Part shown: positions 1 through 16,101 of the stretch, one piece after another
Layout of the letters: each line of letters starts with the position of its first letter
Position numbering within the stretch: position 1 is the stretch's first letter
The notes under the pieces: generated by a model
What the model saw: the letters and a program-made list of their open reading frames with translations, nothing else
The model's database searches: none
Told to the model about the DNA's origin: nothing
Position numbers and translations under genes: made by a program
Origin: Spirochaetia bacterium
GTDB taxonomy: Bacteria > Spirochaetota > Spirochaetia > SZUA-6 > Bin103
Direction: 5' to 3'
DNA: 64,000 nucleotides
Assembly (NCBI GenBank): GCA_965208575.1
Contig: CBDBOV010000002.1
Coordinates: 704,001-768,000 of the forward strand

Positions 1-91
1 GCCGCTCGCCGCCGAGGTGCAGGCGTTCGTCGCTGCCGTGGCCCCCGCCGATTCCTGACCGCCGGAGTGAAGATCGCACGGGAACAGGCCA

Positions 92-712
92 TTGCGTAGC
101 CGGCACATGGCGATGGCACTTGAAGAGTTCCGGCTCCTGAAGAGGAAACCGGGGTGGAAGTACGAGTATTGGAACGGTGAGGCACACATCTCGCCGGGAC
201 ATCGGGTGGTCACCATGTCCCTCGACATAGAGCCACGCTCCTGCCAAAGCCCTTGTCAGATCGGGCCCGTGGTGACGCGGCGCGAAGCGGAGTTGATTGC
301 CGCCTACTTGGCGGCCTTCAGAGACACCATCGAGTACTGCGATTGGGAGGAGGAGAGAATCGCCGATTCGGCCAACAAGAGCGTCGTCGAATTTCTTGCC
401 GGTGAACGCGGCGATCCTCTCGCGGCGTCACGCCTGGCTCTGATCTGCCATCCCGAAGCCGACGGGAGAGTGGTGGGTGGTGCTGCCCTCCTGGTCGAAA
501 CGGATGACAAATGTCCACTCTTGGATATGCTCTTCGTTGCTCCGGAGTGGCAACGCCGGGGGATAGCCACCGCCTTGGTGTCGTCGGCGGTCAATCAATT
601 GCACGGCCGGGGATACAGGCGTCTGAAGAGCCGGTACATGCTCGGCAACGACAAGAGCCGGGCCTGGCACGAAGGGTTCGGATTCTCTCCCATCCCCGAA
701 GGTAGACCATAG
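92..712 (+). CDS. GNAT family N-acetyltransferase
   Basis: Acetyl-CoA motif LFVAPEWQRRGIATALV and C-terminal N..S..W....GF; start could be ATG at 107. Confidence 0.85.
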   Translation: MRSRHMAMALEEFRLLKRKPGWKYEYWNGEAHISPGHRVVTMSLDIEPRSCQSPCQIGPVVTRREAELIAAYLAAFRDTIEYCDWEEERIADSANKSVVEFLAGERGDPLAASRLALICHPEADGRVVGGAALLVETDDKCPLLDMLFVAPEWQRRGIATALVSSAVNQLHGRGYRRLKSRYMLGNDKSRAWHEGFGFSPIPEGRP

Positions 713-836
713 AGCCCCGCAGGGGTCCGAACGCCGGTAACAGCAGAACTGGCATGGCCGGAATCGACGACCGACAGCTTGCAGGAGCGCACGACTGGCG
801 GCCAACTCCGCACGCGGCCACGGCGTGGAGGCGGCG

Positions 837-3449
837 CTACCGCGACGGCTCGGGCGGCGGAGCTGCTCCGTAGCCGTGGCACATGCGGTGGTGTGCCAGG
901 CACGCGAGAGCCAGGTTCTCCGGCTCCGGGCCGCCCCCGTCGGCAACCGGCAGCAGGTGGTGGATCTGTAGCAGGTGGGACGAATTGCAGCGGCGACCGG
1001 TGAGCGGGTCCCGATAGCAGCAGCGCCCCCCGTCGCGCAGCCAGACGTGACGCCGGACAGCCGCCGGAATGGAGCGCCGCGGCGGCGACCGGCGCGGGCC
1101 GAGCGGAGCATCGCGGGTGCACTGCGGCGATGCTCCCCCCGGTGAGCCGCCCGCCCCACGCGCAGGCGGCACGCCGCTGACCAACTTCGGCGCCGCAGCC
1201 GTGGCCAACCGGATCGGCATGGCACCAGTACCGTCGGCGGAGCCGTCGCCGGCCAACTTCGGCGCCGCAGTCGTGGCCGGCCGGATCGGCGTGGCACCAG
1301 CGCCGTCGGCGGGGCCGCCGCTGACCAACTTCGGCGCCGCAGTCGTGGCCGGCCGGATCGGCGTGGCACCAGCGCCGTCGGCGGGGCCGCCGCTGACCAA
1401 CTTCGGCGCCGCAGTCGTGCCCGGCCGGATCGGCGTGGCACCGGCGCCGTCGGCGGGGCCGCCGCCGGCCAACTTCGGCGCCGCAGCCGTTGCCGGCCGG
1501 ATCGGCGTCGCATCAGCGCCATCGGCGGGGCCGCCGCCGGCGCTCCGACCCTCCGGCGCCGCAGCAACGGCGGGCGGGGCCGAAGCAGCGCCACCCGCGC
1601 GGGTGCCAACTGCCCGTGTACCGCCCGCCGGGGCGGCGGGCGCAACGCCGCGCACCGGGCGAGCGTTGGGGGACGCCGCCGCCCGCGGCAGCTCCCCGGC
1701 GGACGCGGGCGCGCCCCGTGGCGCCGGAGTATCGCCGCCCCCACCCACGGCGGCCGCCGCCACGACCGAGGGTGTGCTGGTCCGCTCCCGCCGCGACGAT
1801 GCTGCCGTGCCGCCCGAACGCCCCCGCCTGCCACCGCCGCCGCGCGGGTCGTGCCGCGCCACCGCCTCGCGCACCAGCCGCGCCACCAAGTCCCCCCACG
1901 ACATGCGCGGGTCGACGTGCGACAGCCAGTTCTTCAGTTGGCGCAGTCCCTGCTCGCACTCCTGGTCGATGCTCACCTTCAACGTGTAGCGGTCCGGCGC
2001 CACCGCACGCAGCGTGTCGCGCGGCGGCGCCACCTGCGGAGCGGCACTGGCCAGCAGGCCGGCGACCTGGCGCGTGGTCATGCCGGCGGCCTGCTCGATC
2101 AGCTCGCGCTGCCGCCGCGGGTGCAGCAGCGCGGCGGCGGACAACGGCCCGGCGGACCGCTCGGGGCTGGAACACGGTTCCGGGTTGGAACAAAGTTCCG
2201 GGTTCCGATCACCCCGCGACGGCGCCGGTGCGAGCGCAGCGGTGCGCCGCGGCTCCGATGCGGCCACGACCGGCAACGGGACCGGCTCGGCGCCACTCGC
2301 CGGCGGTGGAAGTGGCGCGGCCGGGCCTTGGTCCGAGGAGGCCACGGCGGGACCGGGAGCGCGCAACGGTGCCCGTGCAGCCGCGTGGCTCGCCACCGGC
2401 ACCACCGGCGTGGTCGCCGCCTCGTTACCCGTGAGCCCGGGCCGCGGTACACGCCCCGGCGCCGCGGGCGGTGGCGCGTGCAGGGTGGTGGGCGTCGAAG
2501 CCGGTGCAGCGCCCGAGGTGGCGGCACTCGAGTCCAATCGGCCCACCGGCTGCGCACCCGCGGCTGCCGGGCCGGCACCGACTGCCGCCGAGTCGTCCGA
2601 CGACGGCCTGCAACGGTCGCTCTCCGCATGCCGGTCCCCGCGGCCTCCGGCGTCACCGGGCGACCGCGCCACCGGCCCGTCCGGCGGTCGGCTGCAGCCG
2701 TCGCTCACGGTGTGCCGGTCTTCGCGGCCCCCGGCGGCACGGGACGACCGCGCCGCCGAGTCGTCCGACGATGGCCTGCAACGGTCGCTCTCCGCATGCC
2801 GGTCGTCGCGGCCTCCGGCGTCACCGAGCGACCCCGCCACCGGCTCGTCCGACGATGGTCTGCAACGGTCGTTCCCGGTATGCCGGTCCCCGCAGCCCCC
2901 GGCGTCACCGAGCGCCCCCGCCTCCTGTTCGACGGCGGCCACGCCGGGCCGCGCCGATGCCGTCCCCGCCGCGGCACCGGCCATCCCCGCTCCCGACGCT
3001 TCGCCATCCTGGTCTCCCGCTCCGCCCGGCGCAGCAGGTAGCCCATGCAGACCTTGGCAGCGCTCCTGATCGACGGGCGCGCTCGCTCTCCTGCACTGGC
3101 GCTCGGCGGCGCCAAACGCGGTCTCCAACTGCGCCGCCGACGTCACACTCAGCTCGCCGCTGTGCAGCATGGCCCGCACCCAGCCATGCCGCCGGCACAG
3201 CCTCATGGTCTGAATACGCCGTTGCGCGGCCGCATCGGTGAAGCGCAACTCCCGCACCGCGTAGTCGAACAGGCTCGAGAACCCGCGCCGCAGCGCCAGC
3301 CCGCGACGGTCGATCTCGTCGAGATGGTCCAGGATGTGCACTTCGAGGCCGCGCTGGTTGGCCGCCAGGCGCCTGGTCTGCTCGAGGAGCTGCTGATCAC
3401 CGAGTGAGTTGAAAGGTCGTCTGCCGGTCCCGCCGGTCATGTTTAACAT
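837..3449 (-). CDS. HNH endonuclease with DUF222-like helical N-terminus and low-complexity repeat linkers
   Basis: N-term LGDQQLL...HLDEIDRRGLALRRGFSSLFDY...AAQRRI; C-term RRSIPAAVRRHVWLRDGGRC...C...LQIHH..P...GG....NL...C..HH. Confidence 0.85.
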   Translation of the reverse strand: MLNMTGGTGRRPFNSLGDQQLLEQTRRLAANQRGLEVHILDHLDEIDRRGLALRRGFSSLFDYAVRELRFTDAAAQRRIQTMRLCRRHGWVRAMLHSGELSVTSAAQLETAFGAAERQCRRASAPVDQERCQGLHGLPAAPGGAGDQDGEASGAGMAGAAAGTASARPGVAAVEQEAGALGDAGGCGDRHTGNDRCRPSSDEPVAGSLGDAGGRDDRHAESDRCRPSSDDSAARSSRAAGGREDRHTVSDGCSRPPDGPVARSPGDAGGRGDRHAESDRCRPSSDDSAAVGAGPAAAGAQPVGRLDSSAATSGAAPASTPTTLHAPPPAAPGRVPRPGLTGNEAATTPVVPVASHAAARAPLRAPGPAVASSDQGPAAPLPPPASGAEPVPLPVVAASEPRRTAALAPAPSRGDRNPELCSNPEPCSSPERSAGPLSAAALLHPRRQRELIEQAAGMTTRQVAGLLASAAPQVAPPRDTLRAVAPDRYTLKVSIDQECEQGLRQLKNWLSHVDPRMSWGDLVARLVREAVARHDPRGGGGRRGRSGGTAASSRRERTSTPSVVAAAAVGGGGDTPAPRGAPASAGELPRAAASPNARPVRGVAPAAPAGGTRAVGTRAGGAASAPPAVAAAPEGRSAGGGPADGADATPIRPATAAAPKLAGGGPADGAGATPIRPGTTAAPKLVSGGPADGAGATPIRPATTAAPKLVSGGPADGAGATPIRPATTAAPKLAGDGSADGTGAMPIRLATAAAPKLVSGVPPARGAGGSPGGASPQCTRDAPLGPRRSPPRRSIPAAVRRHVWLRDGGRCCYRDPLTGRRCNSSHLLQIHHLLPVADGGGPEPENLALACLAHHRMCHGYGAAPPPEPSR
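1177..1560 (-). repeat. 72 bp (24 aa) coding tandem repeat, ~5 units
   Basis: ccaacttcggcgccgcag at 1181, 1253, 1325, 1397, 1469; unit APKLVSGGPADGAGATPIRPATTA. Confidence 0.95.
2585..2920 (-). repeat. 84 bp (28 aa) coding tandem repeat, 4 units
   Basis: tgcaacggtcg-like core at 2609, 2693, 2777, 2861; unit GDAGGRxDRHxESDRCRPSSDD. Confidence 0.9.
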
Positions 3450-3480
3450 GTCTTAAATATAACACTGGTCTGTAGATAGC
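3450..3480 (-). promoter_or_regulatory. Extended -10 promoter (TGtTATATT) 6 nt before the HNH ATG; probably leaderless
   Basis: Minus strand gtgttatatttaagacATG; equivalent motif in copy 2. Confidence 0.55.
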
Positions 3481-3958
3481 ACTTTCTTGCAGGTCCTCGA
3501 CCCGGTACCGGCAGCGCCCGTGGAGCGCGAATTGGCGGCTCCAGGGGCACGCGCTCGGCCACTTGACGGGCGCACACCATTGCCGGACTTCACGGCCCGC
3601 CAGGGGCCTTCAGCGGCAGCGGAAAAGTGCGTCAACCCCTGCGCCCGATTTTCTGCAGTTATTTTGGTGCAGGTCGAACTCCGGCCACCGCGGCACGCAG
3701 GAACCACCCCACGCCGCAAAGATGGTCCGACCCTCCCGGTACGTGAGCCCTGACGACCACCGGCGCCGCGGCAGCCTGCCCGGTCCCCCATCTGCTGCCG
3801 TGCCGACCGGAGCGGTGGGGTGAGACCGGTGCGTGCCGACTTCGTCAACCGCCACCACCGCCTTTCGCAATCGCACCGGCGCCCGCAGGTGCAAGAGGAC
3901 GCGTGTACCCCGATTGCGGTAGCATCGCGCCTGAGAGAGCGAGAGGGGGAGCATCGTC

Positions 3959-4396
3959 ATGAGCGAGTACATTCCGAGTCCGGCGCAGTGGGTGCGCGAC
4001 CAGGTGGAGCTGTATGAAGGCAGCGGCGGCACCGAGGGGCTGACCCTGCGCGATACCGGGTTGCCGGTGATCATCGTGACGCACACGGGCAACAAGACCG
4101 GCGCCGTCCGCAAGACGCCGCTGATGCGGGTGGCGGACGGTGACGGTTACGTGCTGATCGGATCGCAGGGAGGCGCGCCGAAGAATCCGGTGTGGGTGTA
4201 CAACCTGCGCGCCAACCCGGCGGTGACGATCCGCGACGCGACCTCGGTCCAGGAGATGCGGGCGCGCGAGGTGCACGACGACGCGGAGCGGGCGCGGCTG
4301 TGGGTCCTGGCCGTGGCCGCCTTTCCGCCGTACGCCGACTACCAGGACAAGACCACGCGCCGGATACCGGTGTTTCGAGCCGAACCCGTCGCCTGA
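3959..4396 (+). CDS. Deazaflavin (F420)-dependent nitroreductase family protein (Ddn-like)
   Basis: Motifs G.KTG..RKTPL, GSQGGAPKNPVWVYNLRANP, YADYQ.KT.R.IPV. Confidence 0.9.
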   Translation: MSEYIPSPAQWVRDQVELYEGSGGTEGLTLRDTGLPVIIVTHTGNKTGAVRKTPLMRVADGDGYVLIGSQGGAPKNPVWVYNLRANPAVTIRDATSVQEMRAREVHDDAERARLWVLAVAAFPPYADYQDKTTRRIPVFRAEPVA

Positions 4397-4408
4397 TCCG
4401 GCGCCATC

Positions 4409-5239
4409 ATGGGATCGCTGGACGGCAAGGCCGCGCTGGTGACCGGGGCCGGCGGGCGCAACGGCATCGGCCGGGCGGTGGCGCTGCGGCTGGCGGAGGA
4501 CGGCGCGGACGTGGCGGTGAACGACCTGGTCGCCAGGCCGCGCGAGGGCAGCGACTGGGGAGGGCTGCCGGCGCTGGCCCGTGAGGTCGAGGCTCTGGGG
4601 CGCCGGTCGCTGGCCGTTACCGGCGACGTGGGCGACGCGGCGCAGGTGCAGGCGATGGTCGACCGGGTGGTCGACCAATTGGGCAGCCTGGACATCCTGG
4701 TGACGAACGCCGGCACTCCGGCCGGCCGCGACCGGGTGCCGATCGTGGAGTTGGAGGAGCAGCACTGGGACCGGGTGCTGCGGGTCAACGCCAAGGGCAC
4801 GTTCCTGTGCTGCCGGGCGGCGGCGCGGGTAATGATCGGCGCCGGTCGCGGCGGCCGCATCATCACCATGTCATCGGTTGCGGGCAAGCAGGGCCGGGCG
4901 CGGTTCGGCGCCTACGCTGCCTCCAAGTTCGCCGTCGTGGGGCTGACGCAGGCGCTCGCGCACGAGCTCGGCCCGCATGGCATCACCGTCAACGCGTTGT
5001 GTCCCGGCGTGATAGATACCGAGCGCTACCACGACATCGCGAACGCCACCCGCGACTCCGACACCTCCACCGAGGAGCGGCGCGCGCGCCTGTTCGCCGG
5101 CGCCGCCCGCGCCACGCCGCTGGGGCGGATCGGCAGCGCGGCCGACGTCGCCCGCGTGGCGGCGTTTCTGGCCGGCCCGGACAGCGGCTTCGTCACCGGC
5201 CTTGCCGTGCCGGTGGCCGGCGGCCTGTACATGCAGTAG
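4409..5239 (+). CDS. SDR family oxidoreductase
   Basis: TGAGGRNGIG, TNAG, YAASK motifs. Confidence 0.95.
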   Translation: MGSLDGKAALVTGAGGRNGIGRAVALRLAEDGADVAVNDLVARPREGSDWGGLPALAREVEALGRRSLAVTGDVGDAAQVQAMVDRVVDQLGSLDILVTNAGTPAGRDRVPIVELEEQHWDRVLRVNAKGTFLCCRAAARVMIGAGRGGRIITMSSVAGKQGRARFGAYAASKFAVVGLTQALAHELGPHGITVNALCPGVIDTERYHDIANATRDSDTSTEERRARLFAGAARATPLGRIGSAADVARVAAFLAGPDSGFVTGLAVPVAGGLYMQ

Positions 5240-5336
5240 CCGCGCCGCGCCGCCCCGCGCCGCCGGCACCGTTCCGGTTGGTTGACCGGGGCGGGGTGCG
5301 TCGCTAAGGTTCCCCGTTGTCGGGGATCGAAGCGCC

Positions 5337-6335
5337 GTGATTCAGTACTTCATACGCCGCGTCGGCTACATGCTGGTAACCCTGCTGGGAATATCGATCC
5401 TGGCGTTCGTCATCATCCAGGCGCCGCCCGGCGACTATCTCGACATCTACATCCAGCAGCTTCGCGAGCGCGGCATCGAGACCGACCGCGAGGAGCTGGC
5501 CGGCCTGGAGGCGCGCTACGGGCTCAACCAGCCGGTACTGGTCCAGTACTTCAAGTGGATGGGCAACCTGATCACGCTTGACCTGGGCAAGTCGCTGGCC
5601 ACGCAACAGAGGGTGATCGACATCCTCGGCGAACGGGTGCCGCTGACCGCCATGATCACGCTGCTCACCACCGTGTTCACCTTTGCCGTGGCGATACCGA
5701 TCGGCATCTACGCCGCCACCCACCAGTACTCGCTGACCGACTACTCGGTGTCGACGCTCGGCTTCATCGGCCTGGCGACGCCCAACTTCCTGCTCGCCCT
5801 GATCCTGATGTTCCTGGCCAGCCGCTGGCTGGGGGTCAGCATCGGCGGCCTGTACTCGCCGGAGATGGTGACCGCGCCGTTCAGCTTGGCCAAGCTGTGG
5901 GACCTGATCAAGCACCTGCCGGTGCCGATCATCGTGGTGGGCACCGCCGGAACCGCGGGGCTGATCCGCATCATGCGCGCCACCATGCTCGACGAGCTGC
6001 GCAAGCAATACGTGATCACGGCGCGGTCGAAGGGCGTCGAAGAGGGGCGCCTGCTGTTCAAGTACCCGGTGCGGATCGCGGTCAATCCCCTGGTCAGCAC
6101 CATCGGCTGGCTGCTGCCGGAGATCATCTCCGGGGAGACCGTCACCGCGGTCGTGCTGAGTCTGCCCACCGTGGGGCCGCTGCTGCTCACCGCCCTGCTG
6201 CAGCAGGACATGTACCTGGCCGGCAGCATCATCATGGTGCTGAGCCTGCTCGTCGTGATCGGGACGCTGATCTCCGACATGCTGCTGGCGGTGGTCGATC
6301 CGCGCATCCGGATGGAGCGCAAGGCGGCGGCGTGA
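5337..6335 (+). CDS. Peptide/oligosaccharide ABC transporter permease (DppB/OppB-like)
   Basis: N-term FIRR...PPGD, YGLNQP..VQY..W; EAA-like YVITARSKG; C-term DPRIR. Confidence 0.93.
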   Translation: MIQYFIRRVGYMLVTLLGISILAFVIIQAPPGDYLDIYIQQLRERGIETDREELAGLEARYGLNQPVLVQYFKWMGNLITLDLGKSLATQQRVIDILGERVPLTAMITLLTTVFTFAVAIPIGIYAATHQYSLTDYSVSTLGFIGLATPNFLLALILMFLASRWLGVSIGGLYSPEMVTAPFSLAKLWDLIKHLPVPIIVVGTAGTAGLIRIMRATMLDELRKQYVITARSKGVEEGRLLFKYPVRIAVNPLVSTIGWLLPEIISGETVTAVVLSLPTVGPLLLTALLQQDMYLAGSIIMVLSLLVVIGTLISDMLLAVVDPRIRMERKAAA

Positions 6336-7468
6336 GCACGGGTCTCGACCTGCCGGTACCGGAAACCGCCGCCACCGACCAACGGCAGGAGCAGTACTTC
6401 GTCGCCTCCCAGTGGCAACTGGTGTGGCGCAAGTTCCGCCGCCACCACCTGGCGTTGCTGGGTATGAGCATCCTCGCCGTGCTCTACCTCCTGGCGGCGT
6501 TCGCCGAGTTCTTCGCCCCCTACGACAAGCTGCTGCGCAACACCGACCTTCGCTTCGCGCCTCCGCAGCGGATCCGGATTTTCGAGAACGGCCGGCTCAG
6601 CGCGCCCTTCGTGTATGGCTACACCACCGAGCGCAACCCGGAGACCTTCCGCGAGGAGTTCACGGTCGACGAGAGTCAGCGGTTCCGCATCGGCCTGTTC
6701 GTGCGCGCCGGCGAGTACCGCCTGTGGGGCCTGTTCAAGACCGACCTGCACTTTTTCGGCACCCGCGACGAGGGCGGTTACGTGTACCTGCTCGGTACCG
6801 AGCGGCTCGGCCGCGACGTGTTGTCGCGCATCATCATCGCGTCGCGCATCTCGCTGAGTGTCGGCCTGGTAGGGGTGTTCATCGCCTTCATACTCGGCTG
6901 CCTGCTCGGCGGCCTGTCAGGCTATCTCGGCGGCTGGGTGGACAACACCATCCAGCGGCTGGTGGAGATCCTGATCTCGGTGCCCACCATCCCGCTGTGG
7001 CTGGCGCTGAGCGCCGCCCTGCCCGCGACCTGGTCGATCGTTGCCGTCTACTTCGGCATCACGGTGATCCTGTCGCTGATCGGCTGGACCGGTTTGGCGC
7101 GCGTGGTGCGCGGCAAGCTGCTGGAGGTGCGCGAAGCCGACTTCGTGCTGGCCGCGCGCATCGCCGGCAAGCGCGAGATGCCGATCATCCGCGAGCACCT
7201 GCTGCCCTCCTTCACCAGCTACCTGGTAGTGGACATGTCGCTGCGCATCCCGGGCATGATCCTCGGCGAAACCGCGCTGAGCTTCCTCGGTTTCGGCATT
7301 CGCCCGCCGGCGGTGAGCCTCGGGTCGCTGCTGATCGACGCCCAGAACGTGGCCACCCTCACCACCCACCCGTGGATGCTGATGCCCGCGCTGCTGGTGA
7401 TCGTGATCGTGCTGTGCTTCAACTTCGTCGGCGACGGCCTGCGCGACTCCGCCGACCCCTACCACTAG
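6332..7468 (+). CDS. ABC transporter permease (DppC/OppC-like)
   Basis: GTG overlaps the upstream TGA; LLGTERLGRDVLSR, ETALSFLG, FNFVGDGLRD. Confidence 0.93.
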   Translation: MSTGLDLPVPETAATDQRQEQYFVASQWQLVWRKFRRHHLALLGMSILAVLYLLAAFAEFFAPYDKLLRNTDLRFAPPQRIRIFENGRLSAPFVYGYTTERNPETFREEFTVDESQRFRIGLFVRAGEYRLWGLFKTDLHFFGTRDEGGYVYLLGTERLGRDVLSRIIIASRISLSVGLVGVFIAFILGCLLGGLSGYLGGWVDNTIQRLVEILISVPTIPLWLALSAALPATWSIVAVYFGITVILSLIGWTGLARVVRGKLLEVREADFVLAARIAGKREMPIIREHLLPSFTSYLVVDMSLRIPGMILGETALSFLGFGIRPPAVSLGSLLIDAQNVATLTTHPWMLMPALLVIVIVLCFNFVGDGLRDSADPYH

Positions 7469-8115
7469 GCGCCCGGGACGAAGGTGAGGTAGCGCAGCAG
7501 GGTGCCGGCCAGCGCCATGAGCCGGGAGAACACCGGTACGCCGACGATGCCGAGCAGGATCAGCCCGAGCAGCAGGTAGGAGCCGAAGCGCGCGTTGTAG
7601 TGGCGGTAGGCGTCGGCGGCGCGCGCCGGCAGCAGGTGGGGCAGGATGTAATGGCCGTCGAGCGGGCCGAGCGGGATCAGGTTGAACAGCATCAGCAGCA
7701 GGTTGACCCGCGCGAGCAGCACGAAGAAGGTGACCGGCCCCTCGGCAAAGAACAGGTCCACGCCGGCGGCGCGCAGCAGCAGGAACAGGTTCCAGGTAAG
7801 CACGGCGAGCAGCAGGTTGGCGGCCGGGCCGGCGGCGGCAATCCACAGATCGGCGCGCGGAGTGCGGAAGTTGCGCGGGTCGGTGGGCACCGGGCGGGCG
7901 TAGCCGAAGCCGACCAGGACCACCATCGCCAGGCCCATCGGATCGATGTGGCGCACCGGGTTGAGGGTGAGCCGGCCCGCGTACTCGGCGGTGCGGTCGC
8001 CGTTCAGCTTGGCCACGTAGGCGTGGCCGAATTCGTGCACCGACAGCGATGCGATCAGCGCCGCCACCAGGAGCCCGAACAGCAGGACCTCGCCCCGAAA
8101 CAACAGCTCGATCAT
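7465..8115 (-). CDS. Site-2 protease (M50) family protein
   Basis: HEFGH, GRLTLNP, FNLIPLGPLDG. Confidence 0.93.
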   Translation of the reverse strand: MIELLFRGEVLLFGLLVAALIASLSVHEFGHAYVAKLNGDRTAEYAGRLTLNPVRHIDPMGLAMVVLVGFGYARPVPTDPRNFRTPRADLWIAAAGPAANLLLAVLTWNLFLLLRAAGVDLFFAEGPVTFFVLLARVNLLLMLFNLIPLGPLDGHYILPHLLPARAADAYRHYNARFGSYLLLGLILLGIVGVPVFSRLMALAGTLLRYLTFVPGA

Positions 8116-8262
8116 CGCGACTCACGCCCCTCCAACAGCCAACGGCAAGACCTCGCCTCGAAACAGCAGCTCGATCATCGCGTCGCGAGCGCCTCCAACG
8201 TGAACGGCGGCCCCTCGCCGCGCAATAGCAGCTCGATCATCGTGCGGCGGATGCCTCGAGGT
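8087..8262 (-). repeat. Three imperfect 62-63 bp tandem copies of the NHL-stop/S2P-start junction
   Basis: cagctcgatcatcg at 8104, 8167, 8229. Confidence 0.85.
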
Positions 8263-9172
8263 CATGGCGCAGCACCACGTGGTGGTAGCGGTCCGCGGTG
8301 TACAGGGAGCCCGGCGCCCACGCCAGCGGCCCGATGATGGCGCGCCGGCCGAGGCTGACGTAGCCGGCGGCGATGGCGGGTTCGAAGGTGCCGTCCGGTG
8401 CGATCACCTGGATGCGGTAGTTGGAGCGGTCGGCCACGTACACGCGGTCGCGGTCGTCCACCACCAGCCCGGACGGGAAGATGAACGCGCCGCCGCTGCG
8501 CCCGCGCTCGCCCCACTCGGCCACGAACGCGCCCTCGGCGGTGAACTTCTGCACCCGGTGGTTGTGCGCGTCCGCGACCCACACGTTGCCGAACGAGTCC
8601 ACGGCAACGGCGCGCACCTCCCGGAACTCGCCGGGCCGTGGACCCTCGCGTCCCCAGGCGGCGAGGAAGGCGCCGTCGCCGGTGAAGCGCTGGATGCGGT
8701 GGTTGCCGGTATCGGCCACGTACACGCTCCCGTCCGGCGCCGCGGCGATCGCGCGCGGGCGGGCGAACTGCCCCGGACCGCTGCCGTTGCCGCCCCAGGT
8801 GGTCAGCAACTCGCCGGCGGCGCTGAACTTCTGCACCCGGTGGGTGGTGAACTCCACCGTGTAGACGGCCCCGTCGCCGCCGACGGCAAGCCCGCTCAGC
8901 CCGAGGAACTGCCCCGGCTCCGATCCCCAGGAGCCGAACGCGTCCACGAACTCGCCGTCGCCGGTCAGCTTCTGCACGCGGTGGTTGTCGGTGTCGGCGA
9001 CGTACAGAAACCCGGCGGCGTCGACGGCAATGTGCGCCGGGGTAAAGAACTCACCCGGCTCGAACCCGCGCGAACCGATAAGGGCTATCCTCTCGTCGTT
9101 GACCGCGCAACCCGCCCCGGCCACGACCAGGGCGAACAGCAGCAACAAACGGGTAGCGGCAATACGACGCAC
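8237..9172 (-). CDS. NHL-repeat six-bladed beta-propeller lipoprotein
   Basis: Lipobox-like VAGAGC; repeated G.GPGQF..P..IA...G.VYVADT.NHRIQ.F. Confidence 0.9.
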   Translation of the reverse strand: MRRIAATRLLLLFALVVAGAGCAVNDERIALIGSRGFEPGEFFTPAHIAVDAAGFLYVADTDNHRVQKLTGDGEFVDAFGSWGSEPGQFLGLSGLAVGGDGAVYTVEFTTHRVQKFSAAGELLTTWGGNGSGPGQFARPRAIAAAPDGSVYVADTGNHRIQRFTGDGAFLAAWGREGPRPGEFREVRAVAVDSFGNVWVADAHNHRVQKFTAEGAFVAEWGERGRSGGAFIFPSGLVVDDRDRVYVADRSNYRIQVIAPDGTFEPAIAAGYVSLGRRAIIGPLAWAPGSLYTADRYHHVVLRHDLEASAAR

Positions 9173-9335
9173 GGATCAATGGTCCGCAAGCAGCGCGCCA
9201 CAGGCAAGCCGGTGGCCTCCGCTGGCTATTGAATTCGCACAGCGGACGGGGGCGGCGCCGTGGGCGAGCGGAGGACGATGACTGGTACCTGATTTCGGGA
9301 TGCGTTGGGGTGACGAGAATAAGGGACCGTGACGG

Positions 9336-10080
9336 TCAATCGCCGCCCCGGTGGTGCGCGAACCAGGGGATGGCGAAGCCTACCAGCGCCTGTGCGGACA
9401 GCAGCGTGCAACAGGCTTGGCCGGCCAATCCGGTGCGGGTAGTCGTGTCCTGCCGCCCAAAGGCAGCGCCTACCTCATCGAAGTCGTGTTCATCAATGTC
9501 GGGCTCGCGGTAACTCACCCATCGCCGGACCCCGTCGACCAGGACCGGCGCGCCGGCCGGCTTGGTCTCCTGGTGGTCGCCGAGCGCGCGCCGTTCGGCA
9601 AAATGCAGCATGGTGTTGGTCCGGTGCCCGACCTTGCGCCCGACCCCCAGGAGCAAGACGTGGCCACCCAAGTCGTGGACCACCGACAGAGGCGATCCTT
9701 CGCCCATCGGATCCTCAAGCCGCTGGGCGGCGACGATCGGTGCCGCGTACCGCCCGAGGGCCGCGAACGAACAGGACGGATGATTGCTGCGAACCGCATC
9801 TGGCCAGGTACGGAATAACTCCGGGATAACGCCGATGAAGGTCGTGGGAGTGACGGCGGCGTCGAACGCCGGCATCGTCGCTCGGATCATCTCCCGCCAG
9901 GCAGACGGCACCGGCGGATTCTCCCATCCCGCCGGGTCGGACAGGCCCGTGGAATGAGCGGGCATGACTATGGTGCCGGTCGTGCCTACTGCCTGCAGCA
10001 GCGCCCGGATCACGGCAACCGGCCCGCCGCAGACCCAGCCGATGGCGCTCAACGAGGAGTGGACCAGCACGACCATCCCT
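9336..10080 (-). pseudogene. AAC(3)/YokD family N-acetyltransferase, 5'-truncated at the HNH element boundary
   Basis: GMVVLVHSSLSAIGWVCGG, GTIVMP, RSNHP..SFAA, NT.LH.AE; the codons upstream of GM are element sequence; an internal ATG at 10076 could still be used. Confidence 0.75.
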
Positions 10081-10288
10081 CTGCACCAAAAAAACTGCAG
10101 AAAATCGGGCGCAGGGGTTGACGCACTTTTCCGCTGCCGCTGAAGGCCCCTGGCGGGCCGTGAAGTCCGGCAATGGTGTGCGCCCGTCAAGTGGCCGAAC
10201 GCGTGCCCCAGGAGCCGCCAATTCGCGCCCCACGGGCGCTTCCGGGACCGGGTCGAGGACCTGCAAAAAAGTGCTATCTACAGTCCAG

Positions 10289-10303
10289 TGGTATATTTAA
10301 GGT
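10289..10303 (+). promoter_or_regulatory. Extended -10 promoter TGgTATATT; probably leaderless HNH transcript
   Basis: TATATT at 10292-10297, ATG at 10304. Confidence 0.55.
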
Positions 10304-12811
10304 ATGATGAACATGACCGGCGGGACCGGCAGACGACCCTTCAGCTCACTCGGCGATCAGCAGCTCCTGGAGCAGACCCGGCGTCTGGCGGCCAACCAGC
10401 GCGGCCTCGAAGTGCACATCCTGGACCATCTCGACGAGATCGACCGTCGCGGGCTGGCGCTGCGGCGCGGGTTCTCGAGCCTGTTCGACTACGCGGTGCG
10501 GGAGTTGCTGTTCACCGATGCGGCCGCGCAACGGCGTATTCAGACCATGAGGTTGTGCCGGCGGCATGGCTGGGTGCGGGCGATGCTGCACAGCGGCGAG
10601 TTGAGTGTGACGTCGGCGGCGCAGTTGGAGACCGCGTTTGGCGCCGCCGAGCGGCAGTGCCGGAGAGCGAGCGCGACCGTCGATCAGGAGCGCTGCCAAG
10701 GTCTGCATGGGCTGCCTGCTGCGCCGGGCGAAGCGGGAGACCAGGATGGCGAAGCGTCGGGAGCGGGGATGGCCGGTGCCGCGGCGGGGACGGCATCGGC
10801 GCCGCCCGGCGTGGCCGCCGTCGACCAGGAGGCGCGGTCGCTCGGTGACGCCGGAGGCTACGGGGCCCGGCACACCGAGAGCGACCGTTGCAGCCGACCG
10901 CCGGACGAGCCGGCGGCGCGGTCGCTCGGTGACACCGGCCACGGGGACCGGCATGCGGAGAGCGACCGTTGCAGCCCATCGTCGGACGACTCGGCGGCAG
11001 TCGGTGCCCGCCCGGCAGCGGCGGGTGCGCAGCCGGTGAGCCGATTGGACTGGAGTGCCGCCACCTCGGGCGCTGCACCGGCTTCGACGGCCGCCACGCG
11101 GCACGCGCCACCGCCTGCGGCGCCGGGGCGTGTACCGCGGCCCGGGCTCACGGGCTACGAGGCGGCGGCCACGCCGGTGGTGCCGGCGGCGAGCCACGCC
11201 GCTGCGCAGCACCTCGGCGCCCGGCATGGCGATGCGCTGCCGGCACGGCGGGAGCCGAGCGGAGCCGCCTGGCACTGTCCGGCACCCGTGCGCGCTCCCG
11301 GTGTCGCCGTGGCCTCCTCGGACCAGGGCCCGGCGGCGCCACTTCCGCCGCCGACGAGTGGCGCCGAGCCGGAACCGTTGCCGGTCGTGGCCGCACCGGC
11401 GCCGTCGCGGGGTGATCGGAACCCGGAACGGTGTTCCAACCCGGAACCGTGTTCCGGCCCGAAGCGGCCCGCCGGGCCGGTGTCGGCCGCCGCGCTGCTG
11501 CACCCGCGGCGCCAGCGCGAGCTGATCGAGCAGGCCGCCGGCATGACCACGCGCCAGGTCGCCGGCCTGCTGGCCAGTGCCGCTCCCCAGGTGGTGCCGC
11601 CGCGCGACACGCTGCGCGCGGTGGCGCCGGACCGCTACACCTTGAAGGTGAGCATCGACCAGGAGTGCGAGCAGGGGCTGCGCCAACTGAAGGACCTGCT
11701 GTCGCACGTCGACCCGCGCATGTCGTGGGGGGACCTGGTGGCGCGCGTGGTGCGCGAGGCGGTGGCGCGGCACGACCCGCGCGGCGGCGGTGGCAGGCGG
11801 GGGCGTGCGGGCGGCACGGCAGCATCGTCGCGGCGGCAGCGGACCCGCACACCCTCGGTCGTGGCGGCGGCGGGCGCCGGGGAGCAACCGCGGGCCGCGA
11901 CGACCCGCAACGCTGCCGGGGTGCGCGGCGTTGCGCCCGCCGCCCCGACGGGCGGTGCAAGGGCAGTTGGCACCCGCGCAGGTGCCGCTGCTTCGGCCAC
12001 GCCCGCCGTTGCTGCGGCGCCGGAGGGTCAGAGCGCCGGCGGCGGCCCTGCCGACGGTACTGATGCCACGCCGTTCCGGGCGGCCACGGCTGCGGCGCCG
12101 CAGTTGGCCAGCGACGGCTCCGCCGACGGTGCTGATGGGACGCCGACCCGGCCCGCCACGAGTGCGGCGCCGAAGTTGGCCGGCGGCGGATCTGTCGACG
12201 GCGCTGATGCGACGCCGATCCGGTCGGCCACGGCTGCGCCGCCGAAGTTAGTCAGCGGCGGCTCCGCCGCCGGCGCTGGTGCGACGCCGACCGGGTCGGC
12301 CACGAGTGCGGCGCCGAAGTTGGTCAGCGGCGGCTCCGCCGATGGCGCTGGTGCCACGCGCATCCGGTCGGCTACGACTGCGGCGCCGAAGTTGGCCGGC
12401 GGCGGCTCCGCTGGCAGCGCTGATGCGACGCGGATCCGGCGGGCTACGGCTGCGGCGCCGAAGTTGGCCAGATGCGTGCGGCCTGTGCGTGGTGCGGGCG
12501 GCACGGCGGGGGGAGCATCGCCGCGGTGCACCCGCGATGCTCCGCTCGGCCCGCGCCGGTCGCCGCCGCGGCGCCCCATTCCGGCGGCTGTCCGGCGTCA
12601 CGTCTGGCGGCGCGACGGGGGGCGCTGCCGCTATCGGGACCCGCTCACCGGTCGCCGCTGCAATTCGTCCCACCTGCTACAGATCCACCACCTGCTGCCG
12701 GTTGCCGACGGGGGCGGCCCGGAGCCGGAGAACTTGGCTCTCGCGTGCTTGGCGCACCACCGCATGTGCCACGGCTACGGACCAGCTCCGCCGCCCGAGC
12801 CGTTGCGGTAG
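10304..12811 (+). CDS. HNH endonuclease with DUF222-like helical N-terminus (paralog of 837-3449)
   Basis: Near-identical N-terminal, central and HNH blocks; linkers differ. Confidence 0.85.
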   Translation: MMNMTGGTGRRPFSSLGDQQLLEQTRRLAANQRGLEVHILDHLDEIDRRGLALRRGFSSLFDYAVRELLFTDAAAQRRIQTMRLCRRHGWVRAMLHSGELSVTSAAQLETAFGAAERQCRRASATVDQERCQGLHGLPAAPGEAGDQDGEASGAGMAGAAAGTASAPPGVAAVDQEARSLGDAGGYGARHTESDRCSRPPDEPAARSLGDTGHGDRHAESDRCSPSSDDSAAVGARPAAAGAQPVSRLDWSAATSGAAPASTAATRHAPPPAAPGRVPRPGLTGYEAAATPVVPAASHAAAQHLGARHGDALPARREPSGAAWHCPAPVRAPGVAVASSDQGPAAPLPPPTSGAEPEPLPVVAAPAPSRGDRNPERCSNPEPCSGPKRPAGPVSAAALLHPRRQRELIEQAAGMTTRQVAGLLASAAPQVVPPRDTLRAVAPDRYTLKVSIDQECEQGLRQLKDLLSHVDPRMSWGDLVARVVREAVARHDPRGGGGRRGRAGGTAASSRRQRTRTPSVVAAAGAGEQPRAATTRNAAGVRGVAPAAPTGGARAVGTRAGAAASATPAVAAAPEGQSAGGGPADGTDATPFRAATAAAPQLASDGSADGADGTPTRPATSAAPKLAGGGSVDGADATPIRSATAAPPKLVSGGSAAGAGATPTGSATSAAPKLVSGGSADGAGATRIRSATTAAPKLAGGGSAGSADATRIRRATAAAPKLARCVRPVRGAGGTAGGASPRCTRDAPLGPRRSPPRRPIPAAVRRHVWRRDGGRCRYRDPLTGRRCNSSHLLQIHHLLPVADGGGPEPENLALACLAHHRMCHGYGPAPPPEPLR
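12030..12470 (+). repeat. 72 bp coding tandem repeat, 6 units
   Basis: tgcggcgccgaagttgg-like motif at 12091, 12163, 12235, 12307, 12379, 12451. Confidence 0.92.
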
Positions 12812-12972
12812 CGCTGCCTCCACGCGGTGGCCGCGTGCGGAGTTGGCCGCCCGTCGTGCGCTCCTGCAAGCTGTCTGCCGTCGATCCCGGCCATGCGAAT
12901 TCTGCCGTTTCCGGCGTTCGGACCCCACGTGGGGTTGAGCAACGGTCGGGCGGCGTGCCACGGTGACCGACG

Positions 12973-13890
12973 ATGAAGGCACGAACGATCGAATATCAAC
13001 CGGGCGGAGGGGTGCGGCTGGTGGAGACGGCGGTTGCCGATCCGGGGCCGGGCGAGGTGCAGGTGCGGGCGGCGGCGTGCGGCATCTGTGCGTGGGACCT
13101 GTACACCTACCGGCACGGCAGCGACGCCCCGAGCGCGGCGCCCGCGGGGCACGAGGGGATCGGCCGGGTGCTGAAGGTGGGTCGCGGCGTCAGCGGCCTC
13201 GCCGAGGGCGACGCGGTGGTGGCGCGCGGCTTCGCCACGGTGCACAACGTGGCCGCCGAACGCGCGCTGCGTATCCCGGATACCGACATTCCGCTCGAGC
13301 GCTGGATCGTGGAGCCGGTGAGTTGCGTGGTCACCGGTCTGGACCACACCCGCGCCCGTGCCGGCGACCGGGTGGCGGTGATCGGCTGCGGCTTCATGGG
13401 ACTGATGCTGCTGCAGGGGCTGGTTCGCTCGTGCGTCCATCACCTGGCGGCAATCGACGTGAACCGCGACCGGCTGACCCTGGCGCGCAGCTTCGGCGTG
13501 GACGCCGCCTACCATCCCGAGGACGAGGGGCTCGCCGGCGAGGAGCCGTTCGACTGCGTGGTCGATGCTTCCGGCGCGCAGGCGGGCCTCGACCTGGCGA
13601 CCGGCCTGCTCGGCCGCGGCGGCGTGCTCAACCTGTTCGGCTGGAACCACGGCCGGCCCACGTTCGCCGGCGACCGCTGGCACCTCGGCGGCTTCACGGT
13701 GGTCAACTCCGCCCCCGGTTCCCGGATCCGCGACACCTTCCCGCCCGCGATCCGGCTCATCGCCAAGCGCATCATCGACCTGGAACCGCTCATCACCCAC
13801 ACCGTCCCGCTCGACGCCTATCCCGACCTGCTCGCCCAGGTGGCGGCGGGCGACCCCGGCTACATCAAGGGGGTGGTCACTCTCGACTGA
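12973..13890 (+). CDS. Zinc-binding alcohol dehydrogenase (MDR) family protein
   Basis: CGICAWD, GHEGIG, IGCGFMG. Confidence 0.9.
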   Translation: MKARTIEYQPGGGVRLVETAVADPGPGEVQVRAAACGICAWDLYTYRHGSDAPSAAPAGHEGIGRVLKVGRGVSGLAEGDAVVARGFATVHNVAAERALRIPDTDIPLERWIVEPVSCVVTGLDHTRARAGDRVAVIGCGFMGLMLLQGLVRSCVHHLAAIDVNRDRLTLARSFGVDAAYHPEDEGLAGEEPFDCVVDASGAQAGLDLATGLLGRGGVLNLFGWNHGRPTFAGDRWHLGGFTVVNSAPGSRIRDTFPPAIRLIAKRIIDLEPLITHTVPLDAYPDLLAQVAAGDPGYIKGVVTLD

Positions 13891-16101
13891 CGCGCGCGCC
13901 GAACAGGTACCGATACAGCATGAGCGCAAGCTGTGGATCGCGCTGCTCCAGCCGGATTCGGGCGTCCGGCGTCAGGTGCATCGTGCGGCACGTCTCGTCC
14001 GCGACCACCGACGCATCTTTCTCATGCAACGACCCGGACGGCCATACGACGCCGCCGGGGCGATACTGACTCATGCGCGCACCGTCGGCGTCGTAACCGG
14101 AAGCGCGCCCCGAGATCACCAATTGCAGACCGTCGTGCGGCGCTCCCGGCCCCTTCAGGGCGATGCCGGCGTCGTATCGGCATGCACTCGTCCACCGTTG
14201 CAGTTGCTCGGTCAGGTACTCGAAGTCGATCTGCCGCTCCAGGTAGCGGTCCAGGTCGCCGGCGGCGTGCTCCAGCAGCGCGGCGCGCCGACCGTGCGTG
14301 CGGTCTTCGTCTTCCTTCCACGCCGCGAGCACGATCTCCTCGCAGCGCTCCAGGGCGCGGTCCAGGTTCGGCTCCATCGGCAGCTCCGCGTACACGGAGG
14401 CGGACAGGTTGTGCTCGACACCGGTGCGCAAGGCCTCGGACGTCGCGCTCAGCACCACCCCCACCCCGGCCGCGTGCGCGGTCTGCATGAACCGGCACAG
14501 CACGTTCACGGCCGAGAAGTCGAAGCCGGACACTGCGGAGAAATCCAGAAGCAGACAGAGGGGACGCACCGGGCCGTGCAACTCCTGCCGGAGACGTTCG
14601 GCCAGCGGGGAGACACCGCCGAAGAACAGGTAGCCGCGCAGCCGGTAGGCGTGCACCCGCTCCCCTTCCTCCAGCAGGATGGCCCGGTCGGGCACGGGGC
14701 GCGCCTTGTTGCTGTGCCGTTCGCGCAGGGTGAACCGCGCCTCCACCGGATTGACGCCGCTGAGGCGCACCACGAAGAACACCAGGGTGGCCAGCATGCC
14801 GGCGCCGACTCCCTCCAGCAATCCGAACGCGGTGATGGCGACGAAGATCAGCACGATGATGCCGTATTCGGCCCAGGGCAGGCGGCGGCGGCTCTTCACC
14901 AGCCCCTCGTCCAGCATGCCGAGCCCGGCGAACACCAGGATCCGCCCACCAGAGCCGCCGGCACCAGCTCCAGCATGCCGTCGCCCAGGAACAGCGCGCC
15001 GCCGACCACCAGCGCGGCGACCACGCCGGTCAGCCGCGTGGCCGCTCCGAACAGCTTGCTGCGCAGCGACGCGGGCACGACGAGGGTCGCCACGGTGCCG
15101 CCGCCCAGGCCGGCGACGGCGCTGGCGACCCCCGTGACGCGAAACTCACGGTCCCAGTCCAGCTCCTGGTCGGCGGCCAGTTCCAGCCCGGCTATGTTCA
15201 GGACCACGCAGATGAAGGCCACCAGGATCAGCGTCAGCATGTGGGGAACCTGCCCGGCCAGCGCCGTCCACTCCACATGCGCCAGGTCGGCGGGGAGCAC
15301 CGAAGGCCACAGGCCGCCGTCGGCGGTGCTGGTCAGCAGCAGGCCCGCCGCCCGCGCCTCGTCGCCCGGTATCCCGAGCGAGGCGAGCGCGAGGTGGTAT
15401 CCGCCGACGGCGAGGGCGACGCTCACCGGCAGGATCAGCGGGTTGCGCCAACGCCTCATCGCCAGGTAGAGGGCGATTCCGTACACCGCTCCCGGGCTCC
15501 ATCTCCACAGCACGGAGGGTTCCAGCAGGGCGGGCAGCGCCCGCCAGTCGGGTTTCGCCCCCATCAGCGCCAGCGCCGCCAGGCACACCGCCCCGCCGAT
15601 GCCGGCGACGAATCCGCCGGCCACCGGGTAGGGGATGAAGCGCACCAGGTTGGCGAGCCGGAACCGTCCGATCAGGAGGCAGCATGCGCCGGTGGCCACC
15701 GCGCTGATCACCAGCGCGGCAACCGTGGTGACGAACAGCGCATGCCCCTCGGCGATCATGGAAAAGCCGATCGTGGCCATCACGATGACGAGCGCCGGCG
15801 ACAGCCCCGCGATCGCGCCGCGGTAGCCGCCGGCGAGCGCGATCACCAGGCACGCCGCGAAGTTCCCGAACAAGACCAGGCCGACGCCCTGGGAGGAGTA
15901 GGAAGCCAGCGGCCCGGAGAAGATGAAGCTGCCGAACGCCACCTGCGCCACCAGCAGCCCCAGGCCGGAGGTAAGGCCGGCCGACAGCGCCGCCAGCGCC
16001 CGCGCGGACGCCAGGTCGGCACGCAACTCGGACGCGAGATCCCGGATCAAGTTTCTCTTCGCTCCGGGTTCTGCTGCTGGTGAAGTGGAGGCTTGCGCCA
16101 T
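13877..16101 (-). pseudogene. SulP-family anion transporter with STAS and cNMP-binding domains, frameshifted near 14943
   Basis: FIPYPVAGGFVAGIG, D.DREF, LRGYLFFG, LLLDFSAVSGFD; two ORFs join as ...LVGG|ILVFAGL if one G is added; may be a sequencing error. Confidence 0.75.

Follow-up and report, generated by a model that had tools for sequence, protein, structure and literature searches.

The spirochaete genome G000, a metagenome-assembled genome of a sponge-associated Spirochaetia (6.5 Mb, 67% G+C, six contigs), carries two oppositely oriented units of roughly 3 kb within 64 kb of its contig C2 (positions 704001-768000, the whole stretch analysed, termed the window hereafter). Each unit holds a single long open reading frame (ORF) for an HNH nuclease, flanked by shared non-coding DNA and accompanied by no transposase gene, which raises the question of how such a unit is multiplied and moved. 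A previous interpretation made from the letters of the window alone (the sequence-only reading) had taken the pair as an autonomous element without inverted repeats or target-site duplications that may spread through its own HNH nuclease and host repair. Comparison with the remainder of the genome and with related genomes led to a different answer. With a probability that we put at about 0.75, the HNH elements are non-autonomous derivatives of ISKra4-family insertion sequences (IS), of the mobile-insertion-cassette type, mobilised in trans by a related active IS. They are not a selfish element of a new kind, devoid of repeats and duplications, but of a known kind with an unusual conserved nuclease cargo and unusual success.

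Ends, target-site duplications and movement of the HNH elements

The sharing of an ORF and flanks by the two window copies was found to be real, the longest arms of similarity measuring 858 nt (95% identity) and 916 nt (86% identity). Within the two ORFs the G+C content rises to 78% and in-frame tandem repeats of 72 and 84 nt occur. Similarity between the copies does end at ctgcaccaaaa on the left and at GGACCC on the right; the left of these bounds is, however, not the end of the element. BLAST of copy 2 against the genome returned 12 copies of this type (type A) at 76-95% nucleotide identity, and in six of the 12 the repeat extends about 205 bp further left, to SGGTGCGAATGCG, while three more retain part of this stretch, which never occurs alone in the copies compared. 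The end of copy 1 consequently lies at window position 3878 and not 3672, that is 206 bp further out. The sister genome G006 holds the locus orthologous to copy 2, its aminoglycoside acetyltransferase AAC(3) flank being 95% identical, together with 424 bp absent from the window (L132 positions 2681-3104) that comprise the first 31 codons of AAC(3), intergenic DNA and the left 205 bp or so of the element. The window junction 10080/10081 is therefore a deletion scar and copy 2 is short of one end. The placement of this end inside an AAC(3) gene holds insofar as 31 N-terminal codons are missing relative to G006; the Pfam domain of the gene is nevertheless complete (model positions 1-231 of 232). 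On the right, GGACCC lies at 723 and 12925 rather than at bounds of 715 and 12934, the motif N3/4-gggg that had been included being flank sequence, and copy 1 ends 10 bp rather than 2 bp from the GNAT stop codon. The ends had been misplaced because two copies are too few to set them. Homology beyond the proposed boundaries, named beforehand as a mark of simple segmental duplication, was indeed found at the left, where its cause is the misplaced boundary and not a segmental duplication.

Both features that had been described as lacking were present once the ends were set correctly. Intact copies terminate in inverted repeats of 22-25 bp (GGGTGCGAACGCCGAAAGCGG-like) and are bordered by duplications of 8 or 9 bp. 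In addition to the 12 type A copies, tblastn with three conserved protein blocks identified 14 further full-length genes in G000 with 45-50% amino-acid identity (type B) along with fragments. If the 12 A copies are taken at about 3 kb each and the 14 B copies at about 2.2 kb each, HNH units occupy an estimated 1% or so of the genome. Five of the B copies, 96-99% identical across 2.0-2.4 kb, share the ends GGGTGGGAACGCCGAAAGCGGTA ... TACCGCTTTCCGCGTTCGCACCC, which form an inverted repeat of 24 nt with 92% complementarity. An exact, in-register duplication of 8 or 9 bp was observed for 3 of 6 A copies (one more matching at 7 of 8) and for 4 of these 5 B copies (the fifth at 7 of 8), hence for 7/11 HNH elements of G000 overall, as compared to a single 8-of-8 match among 930 mismatched left/right flank pairs used as control. 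Copy 1 is among the two A copies for which the flanks gave no clear result. The same architecture was found in G001, with GGGTG..GAA..GC-type ends and, for 5 of 8 elements, an exact duplication of 8 or 9 bp. Copy 1 is an old but complete member of the family, and copy 2 is presumably immobile, its left inverted repeat being gone.

Evidence of movement came from one B copy, B3, for which a precise empty site was found on a 2,405-nt contig from run X3, a sponge metagenome of a study other than that of the best-matching run. Positions 1-167 and 168-1061 of this contig correspond to L025 positions 3252-3418 and 1-894, so that B3 (905-3252) is skipped and a single copy of TTATGTGGA is retained. G001 and G006 are likewise without B3 at that locus, as judged from gene order, the spacer having diverged. 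For copy 1 a precise empty site was not found in G001 or G006: the GNAT gene and the other neighbour of copy 1 are about 240 bp apart in G001 (gene order, spacer not alignable), and the right-hand flank adjoins a different gene in G006. With some 26 full-length copies, target-site duplications and a precise empty site, the proposal of a mobile multicopy unit without a transposase gene was borne out. A LINE-like 5'-truncation was considered for copy 2 and dropped, the truncation being a deletion that also took flanking DNA and no reverse transcriptase being present.

Three further observations concern individual copies. In the B-type gene B14 (C6:1249425-1253873) some 2.5 kb of additional DNA, probably inserted into the gene, separates the N-terminal and central blocks from the HNH block. 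A tRNA-like stretch noted by eye (C2:~335,150-335,230) is found some 100 bp away from the A copy at C2:335296. A B-type sequence is 99% identical between G000 and G006 (C125:1-655, C144:93704-94339) where flanking genes are 86-95% identical, and on this sequence comparison a B-type element may recently have been transferred between the two species. HNH units also break short-read assemblies, several of the matches in G006 ending at contig ends.

Kinship with co-resident ISKra4-family insertion sequences

A search of G000 for the repeat motif, allowing up to 4 mismatches, returned 61 matches, many of them paired 1,438 bp apart. These pairs mark a type-1 IS with the ends GGGTGCGAACGCCGAAAGCGGTAGC / GGGTGCCAATGCCAAAAGCGGTAAC, of which the genome holds 10 copies at 100% identity, including a tandem pair separated by 8 bp. 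The 434-aa ORF of this IS matches the ISKra4 transposase model NF033572 (E 1.6e-58) and, above cut-off, Pfam UPF0236. The genome also holds two 570-bp deletion derivatives of this IS that share one common internal deletion junction, lie at different sites and have a duplication of their own each; exact 8- or 9-bp duplications border 10 of the 12 (10 IS copies and the two derivatives). The presence of these derivatives at two sites with separate duplications means that the transposase of this IS acts in trans on transposase-less DNA in G000, and judging by its sequence the type-1 IS looks currently active. G000 also contains 10 copies, at 99-100% identity, of a second IS, which is 1,534 bp long, encodes a 478-aa ORF, has the ends GGGTGCATTC... 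and is bordered by duplications of 8-9 bp. Its relatives in G010 (8 copies) score above the NF033572 cut-off. Ends starting GGG and duplications of 8-9 bp are the ISfinder values for ISKra4 and ISMich2. The ISKra4 group is classed as a Mutator-like DDE family, p-MULT 4, by Guerillot et al. 2014 (PMC3942029), who also report four ISKra4 elements with extra genes of unknown function.

The arms of A and B elements are each related to the repeat of the type-1 IS. The B left end agrees with the IS left end at 96% across 25 bases, i.e. 24/25, and the B right end holds, in reversed orientation, IS positions 1-34 (88-91%) and 185-236 (76-88%), the latter forming part of the transposase coding region. 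At their left ends, A and G001 elements can be aligned over about 50-60 nt to the reverse-complemented right end of the IS; the right end of A elements is alignable with the left end of the IS, and the 3'-end arm in other A copies agrees with the IS repeat at 18/22 bases. It follows from the orientation of these IS-derived ends that the HNH gene lies antisense within an IS shell. Neither window ORF matches the ISKra4 transposase in Pfam or NCBIfam, and searches with the transposase protein find short relics only within the elements.

In genome G003 two HNH elements (2.2 and 2.5 kb, 99% identical) bear the ends of the second IS type, with an exact 9-bp duplication in 1 of the 2, and retain 155-226 nt of the 3' coding sequence of the second transposase at 92-94% identity, again antisense. 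The HNH gene therefore occupies two different ISKra4-like shells. The parts retained differ, being positions 1-79 and 1121-1534 in the type 2 shell as compared to about 25-60 nt together with positions 1-34 and 185-236 in the type 1 shell, and the idea that the HNH gene homes to one fixed position in a transposase gene was rejected on this account. Other G003 subfamilies (L138, L140-L143) have other ends (about CAGGGCCATC ... GGGATAGTCCT) with apparent duplications of 8-11 bp, by eye.

Identity within each group decreases from the IS (100%) through the B subgroup (96-99%) to type A (76-95%), the G001 copies being at 84-95%, and the terminal repeats are near-perfect and IS-type in the B subgroup and degraded in A. 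As a sequence-based ranking of ages this fits what is expected with a live helper IS.

The HNH protein and other features of the window

Pfam searches of the window ORFs returned nothing but the C-terminal HNH domain PF01844, which at 22.6 bits exceeds its cut-off of 21.4; the family proteins tested scored 22.6-25.7 bits. Among the 15 aligned compact homologues there is no variation in the Cys, Asp/His-His, Asn and His columns, the motif reading HH in type A as opposed to DH in the others. The IscB model NF040563, which has a cut-off of 175 bits, is matched at 20-21 bits and within the HNH part alone. PF02720 (DUF222) was not matched in P0001, P0002 or P0122 at E up to 0.1-10, whereas the N-terminal 100 residues of 3 of 16 compact homologues match it below threshold (16.7-21.2 bits against a cut-off of 24.4), and ESM Atlas clusters of compact homologues have PF02720 on 12-23% of members. 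These sub-threshold matches support the sole conserved ORF as an HNH protein with a remote likeness to DUF222, in line with the comparison drawn in the sequence-only reading. Profile searches and structure comparison of the HNH protein revealed no DDE, HUH or recombinase domain.

An exhaustive HMMER search with a B protein yielded 558 cluster representatives at E up to 1e-30. Compact homologues of 290-350 aa, commonest in Bdellovibrionota in the ESM Atlas and labelled 'HNH endonuclease' or 'hypothetical protein' if named at all, hold all three blocks; the window proteins are this compact core lengthened by tandem-repeat linkers, the copy number of which varies among paralogues. The compact homologue P0267 was modelled with AlphaFold2 from an alignment of 44 sequences (predicted local distance difference test 91.6). 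The model was compared with known structures by VIA-align, all Z scores lying below the caution level of the tool (Z 8), and as leads the three blocks resembled, in order, ParB-type DNA-binding domains, ribbon-helix-helix proteins and HNH nucleases (Table 1). Foldseek of the model against the PDB gave 0 matches at E up to 0.001, and a PDB sequence profile search matched the HNH part only. PADLOC returned nothing for P0002 and P0122 and a single weak REase_II row for P0267, which also had no match in the plasmid collection. Based on the model, the HNH protein probably binds specific DNA through its ParB-like and ribbon-helix-helix domains and nicks or cuts there.

Apart from two rows at chance level, nothing was returned by Rfam searches of window positions 1-14000 (E up to 1), so that no known RNA was recognised in the long upstream region, and a promoter scan of positions 10000-13000 gave no sigma-70 consensus. 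A -10-like box is located 6-7 nt before the HNH start codon, in type A as an extended -10 TGTTATATT 7 nt from the ATG (window 10270-10306 and 3447-3485, by eye) and in G011 as TTGACT-17-TATACT 6 nt before the ATG (L144-L153, around position 1460-1505). This placement suggests a leaderless mRNA for the gene family. In the RNA run X20 short contigs overlap parts of the HNH ORF with 2-12 differences; they may reflect DNA carry-over or paralogues and are no proof of expression.

Two other repeats lie between the window copies. Three 59-nt direct repeats at positions 8078-8261, 62-63 nt apart and 66-85% identical, stand between two genes and each contain CAGCTCGATCATCG. An NHL-repeat beta-propeller gene (8237-9172, minus strand) has an internal periodicity of 141 nt that accounts for the DNA repeat families D4 and D5.

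Table 1. Location of the window features, of related elements elsewhere and of the structural blocks of P0267 (two dots denote window positions; rmsd, root-mean-square deviation).
Feature	Location	Strand	Details
GNAT acetyltransferase gene flanking copy 1	92..712	+	stop codon 710-712
Copy 1, 3' target-site flank	715..722		reverse complement CTGCGGGG
Copy 1, full-length A-type HNH element	723..3878	-	3,156 bp; both ends present; ends placed by comparing 11 further copies in the genome
Copy 1, 3'-end terminal inverted repeat	723..744		+ strand GGGTCCGAACGCCGGTAACAGC; related to type-1 IS left end
ORF P0001	837..3449	-	870 aa; N-terminal helical, central and C-terminal HNH blocks with low-complexity tandem repeats between
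Copy 1, in-frame 72-nt (24-aa) tandem repeats	1172..1609	-	family D2
Copy 1, in-frame 84-nt (28-aa) tandem repeats	2584..3003	-	family D3
Copy 1, 5'-end terminal inverted repeat	3857..3878		reverse complement CGGTGCGATTGCGAAAGGCGGT; related to type-1 IS right end
Copy 1, 5' target-site flank	3879..3888		reverse complement CTGCGGGCGC
AAC(3)-family acetyltransferase gene	9336..10076	-	5'-truncated by deletion; first in-frame ATG 10076; PF02522 E 3.6e-80
Junction of 424-bp deletion	10080..10081		truncated AAC(3) gene fused to copy 2 interior
Copy 2, A-type HNH element	10081..12925	+	2,845 bp; without left ~205 bp including left inverted repeat
ORF P0002, copy 2 HNH protein	10304..12811	+	835 aa
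Copy 2, in-frame 72-nt tandem repeats	11967..12542	+	family D1
Copy 2, 3'-end terminal inverted repeat	12904..12925		genome C2:716904-716925; 18/22 to IS repeat
Type-1 IS copies	C3:50315-51752; C4:92504, 137190, 511218, 512664, 579956, 601023; C5:79850, 1016084; C6:342182		
570-bp derivatives of type-1 IS	C4:140189-140758; C5:154972-155541		
Second IS copy	G000 C1:~149,000-150,500		nine more copies
G003 HNH elements on second-IS shell	L137 609-3073; L139 931-3147		
P0267, ParB/KorB/Spo0J-like block	residues 20-143		6s6h_B Z 6.6 (99 residues, rmsd 3.5); 8qa8_A Z 6.5; 1r71_A Z 6.0; 1vz0_A Z 5.5
P0267, ribbon-helix-helix-like block	residues 150-210		NikR 1q5v_A Z 5.0 (45 residues, rmsd 1.8); TacA, MazE6, TraM, AmrZ and PutA entries Z 4.5-4.9
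P0267, HNH-like block	residues 220-299		GVE2 5h0o_A Z 7.1; IscB HNH Z 6.7 (59 residues); McrA 6ghc_B Z 6.5; 4h9d_A Z 5.9

Probable mobilisation in trans and its alternatives

The shared ends, the size of the duplications and the moved 570-bp derivatives point indirectly to movement of the HNH elements in trans. Each element would be an ISKra4-like shell in which the transposase gene has been replaced, in antisense, by the gene of a DNA-binding HNH nuclease. The DDE transposase of the type-1 IS would bind the shared ends and cut and paste the HNH elements, and the HNH protein would not be the enzyme that inserts the DNA. Such an arrangement resembles the mobile insertion cassettes, which PMC3913671 describes as having inverted repeats and a duplication, no transposase gene, and mobilisation in trans. 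MIC231 of Bacillus cereus, moved by the IS231A transposase, and the qnrD 'mic' similarly combine IS-type ends and a duplication with a passenger in place of the transposase. The shell of the HNH elements is ISKra4-like and not IS231-like as in MIC231. IS231 itself belongs to the IS4 family. Furthermore, unlike in those cassettes, the passenger is an HNH nuclease with predicted DNA-binding domains, is under purifying selection and occupies two IS shells. The elements number 26 in the genome, more than the autonomous IS, and throughout a bacterial family each genome gives tens of matches. The HNH elements share with the ISKra4 group, as with the co-resident 1,438-bp IS, ends that start GGG and duplications of 8-9 bp; they differ from it in having no transposase, the extra genes in the elements listed in PMC3942029 sitting beside one.

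Of 18 genomes sampled from the bacterial family f1, 15 contain the HNH family, at tens of matches apiece, as compared to none of 12 genomes that represent other families of the same order. This distribution and the observations that follow weigh against mobilisation by the type-1 IS or do not fit passive carriage. It is from shared ends that the type-1 transposase appears the most likely agent of mobilisation, and this protein scores 198.8 bits against NF033572, just below the NCBIfam cut-off of 205. At 4 of 22 positions the A repeats depart from the IS repeat, identity between A copies does not exceed about 95%, and the flanks of copy 1 agree at 3 of 8 positions in register, or at 7 bases with a 2-base shift, which leaves its duplication ambiguous; that copy 1 is still able to move is doubtful. 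A close type-1 transposase is present in fewer genomes than the HNH family. G001 has 40 HNH matches and no close type-1 transposase, G012 has a transposase fragment only, and G011 (one contig, 96% complete) has 31 HNH matches, 0 matches to NF033572 and none to the type-1 protein. The G011 copies are 80-91% identical and share a unit made up of a promoter-like stretch and the ORF. No inverted repeats were seen around them in a Smith-Waterman test, which is sensitive to the B subgroup alone and does not pick up the repeats of A and G001 elements; most G003 loci were blank in the same test. Finally, the ratio of nonsynonymous to synonymous substitution rates (dN/dS) among A copies was 0.20 for the N block (36 pairs) and 0.27 for the central block (28 pairs), and 0.14 and 0.29 among G011 copies, the pairs being non-independent in both cases. 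Purifying selection of the kind that these sequence comparisons point to is not predicted by passive hitch-hiking. Taken with the wide spread of the family, it indicates that the HNH gene has a function of its own that is seen by selection.

One such function would be that of an accessory, sequence-specific nuclease or nickase that raises the copy number or the retention of the element while strand transfer is left to the DDE transposase. The HNH protein might for example cut intact IS copies or donor sites, repair then copying in the HNH version. TnpB and IscB have a demonstrated role of this sort in IS200/IS605 and IS607 elements. The selection on the ORF in many copies is in line with such a role, as are the ratio of about 26 HNH elements to 10 autonomous IS, the replacement of the transposase in two IS shells, antisense in all examined (A, B and G003 type), and the prediction of two DNA-binding domains joined to a nuclease (all Z below 8). 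The difference in retained IS sequence between the shells means, on the other hand, that there is no common homing site, no guide RNA was found by Rfam in window positions 1-14000, and the ORF is damaged in 2 of the 5 youngest B copies, which have duplications all the same. On balance we regard an accessory role as unlikely. A bolder version is offered tentatively and is likewise improbable as judged at present: the HNH protein may be a protein-guided counterpart of TnpB/IscB and the element a hyperparasite of ISKra4-like IS, using their ends and transposase while its own cutting outcompetes or converts autonomous copies or secures retention.

For full autonomy, in which the HNH protein cuts the target and mobilises the unit and host repair completes the process, it may be said that the HNH gene is the sole conserved ORF, that it is under purifying selection and that many copies exist in a genome without a detected ISKra4-family transposase (G011). 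At 8 of the 67 metagenomic loci with enough flank, moreover, a compact 300-aa homologue is the sole ORF enclosed by inverted repeats of 28-150 nt; the remaining 59 showed no inverted repeat. The copies in transposase-free genomes are old, at 80-91% identity, and the HNH protein contains no DDE, HUH or recombinase domain that was detectable; HNH nucleases are not known to join DNA. With element ends that are those of a DDE IS at 24/25 bases, the same mix of 8- and 9-bp duplications as the IS, and relics of transposase coding sequence inside the elements, the autonomous spread proposed in the sequence-only reading gives way to the co-resident ISKra4-family IS, and we consider it very improbable. 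Ordinary paralogy through segmental duplication and recombination, with no transposition, is scarcely credible. The old copies at 76-95% identity, the recombination activity evident from tandem-repeat expansion within the ORF and the absence of definable ends in G011 would be compatible with it, yet it is already contradicted for genus g1 by sharp common ends at unrelated sites, exact duplications as compared to 1/930 controls and the precise empty site. Mobilisation in trans by an ISKra4-family IS hence remains the preferred explanation.

Among the compact homologues, those at L125, L099, L106, L059, L090, L093 and L057 were observed between inverted repeats, 56-150 nt in length, in which short palindromes (for instance CCACCGGTGG) occur. 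These units are 1.35-1.7 kb long, hold no other ORF and have ends that do not start GGG; duplications cannot be read from single copies.

The cargo invites comparison with several known proteins. A helical N-terminal region, a C-terminal HNH and dispersal in many copies are shared with the DUF222/REP13E12 HNH proteins of actinobacteria, in contrast to which no match reaches the Pfam cut-off, none at all is found in the two window proteins, and the latter have long tandem-repeat linkers. As with TnpB and IscB of IS200/IS605 and IS607, a non-transposase nuclease gene resides within an IS, and IscB also has an HNH; the present protein, however, lacks a RuvC domain, is accompanied by no guide-RNA family that was found, is found with another IS family and is carried by an element from which the transposase is absent. 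The C-terminal 80 residues have the HNH fold of the free-standing homing, restriction or nicking enzymes McrA, Gme HNH and phage GVE2 HNH, which differ in that the present protein has predicted ParB-like and ribbon-helix-helix N-terminal modules and resides within IS ends with duplications. In a literature search of partial coverage, with the extra-gene tables of PMC3942029 outside its scope, no description of an HNH-only cassette with inverted repeats and duplications was encountered.

Units of this kind are at present annotated simply as 'hypothetical protein' or 'HNH endonuclease', and the mobility of DUF222-type families had been described in the sequence-only reading as not well defined. 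Borrowed ISKra4 ends and a borrowed transposase give one DUF222-like HNH repeat family a concrete and testable route of spreading. Were the elements hyperparasites as outlined above, this would account for an intact gene in 20-60 copies per genome across a bacterial family, for replacement of the transposase in two IS shells and for HNH elements outnumbering their helper, and DUF222-type HNH repeat families elsewhere could disperse by the same trick. Across a family of sponge-associated spirochaetes, a transposase-less cassette that outnumbers its helper IS and carries a nuclease under purifying selection thereby raises the question whether protein-guided nucleases may be to DDE IS what the RNA-guided TnpB and IscB are to IS200/IS605 and IS607.

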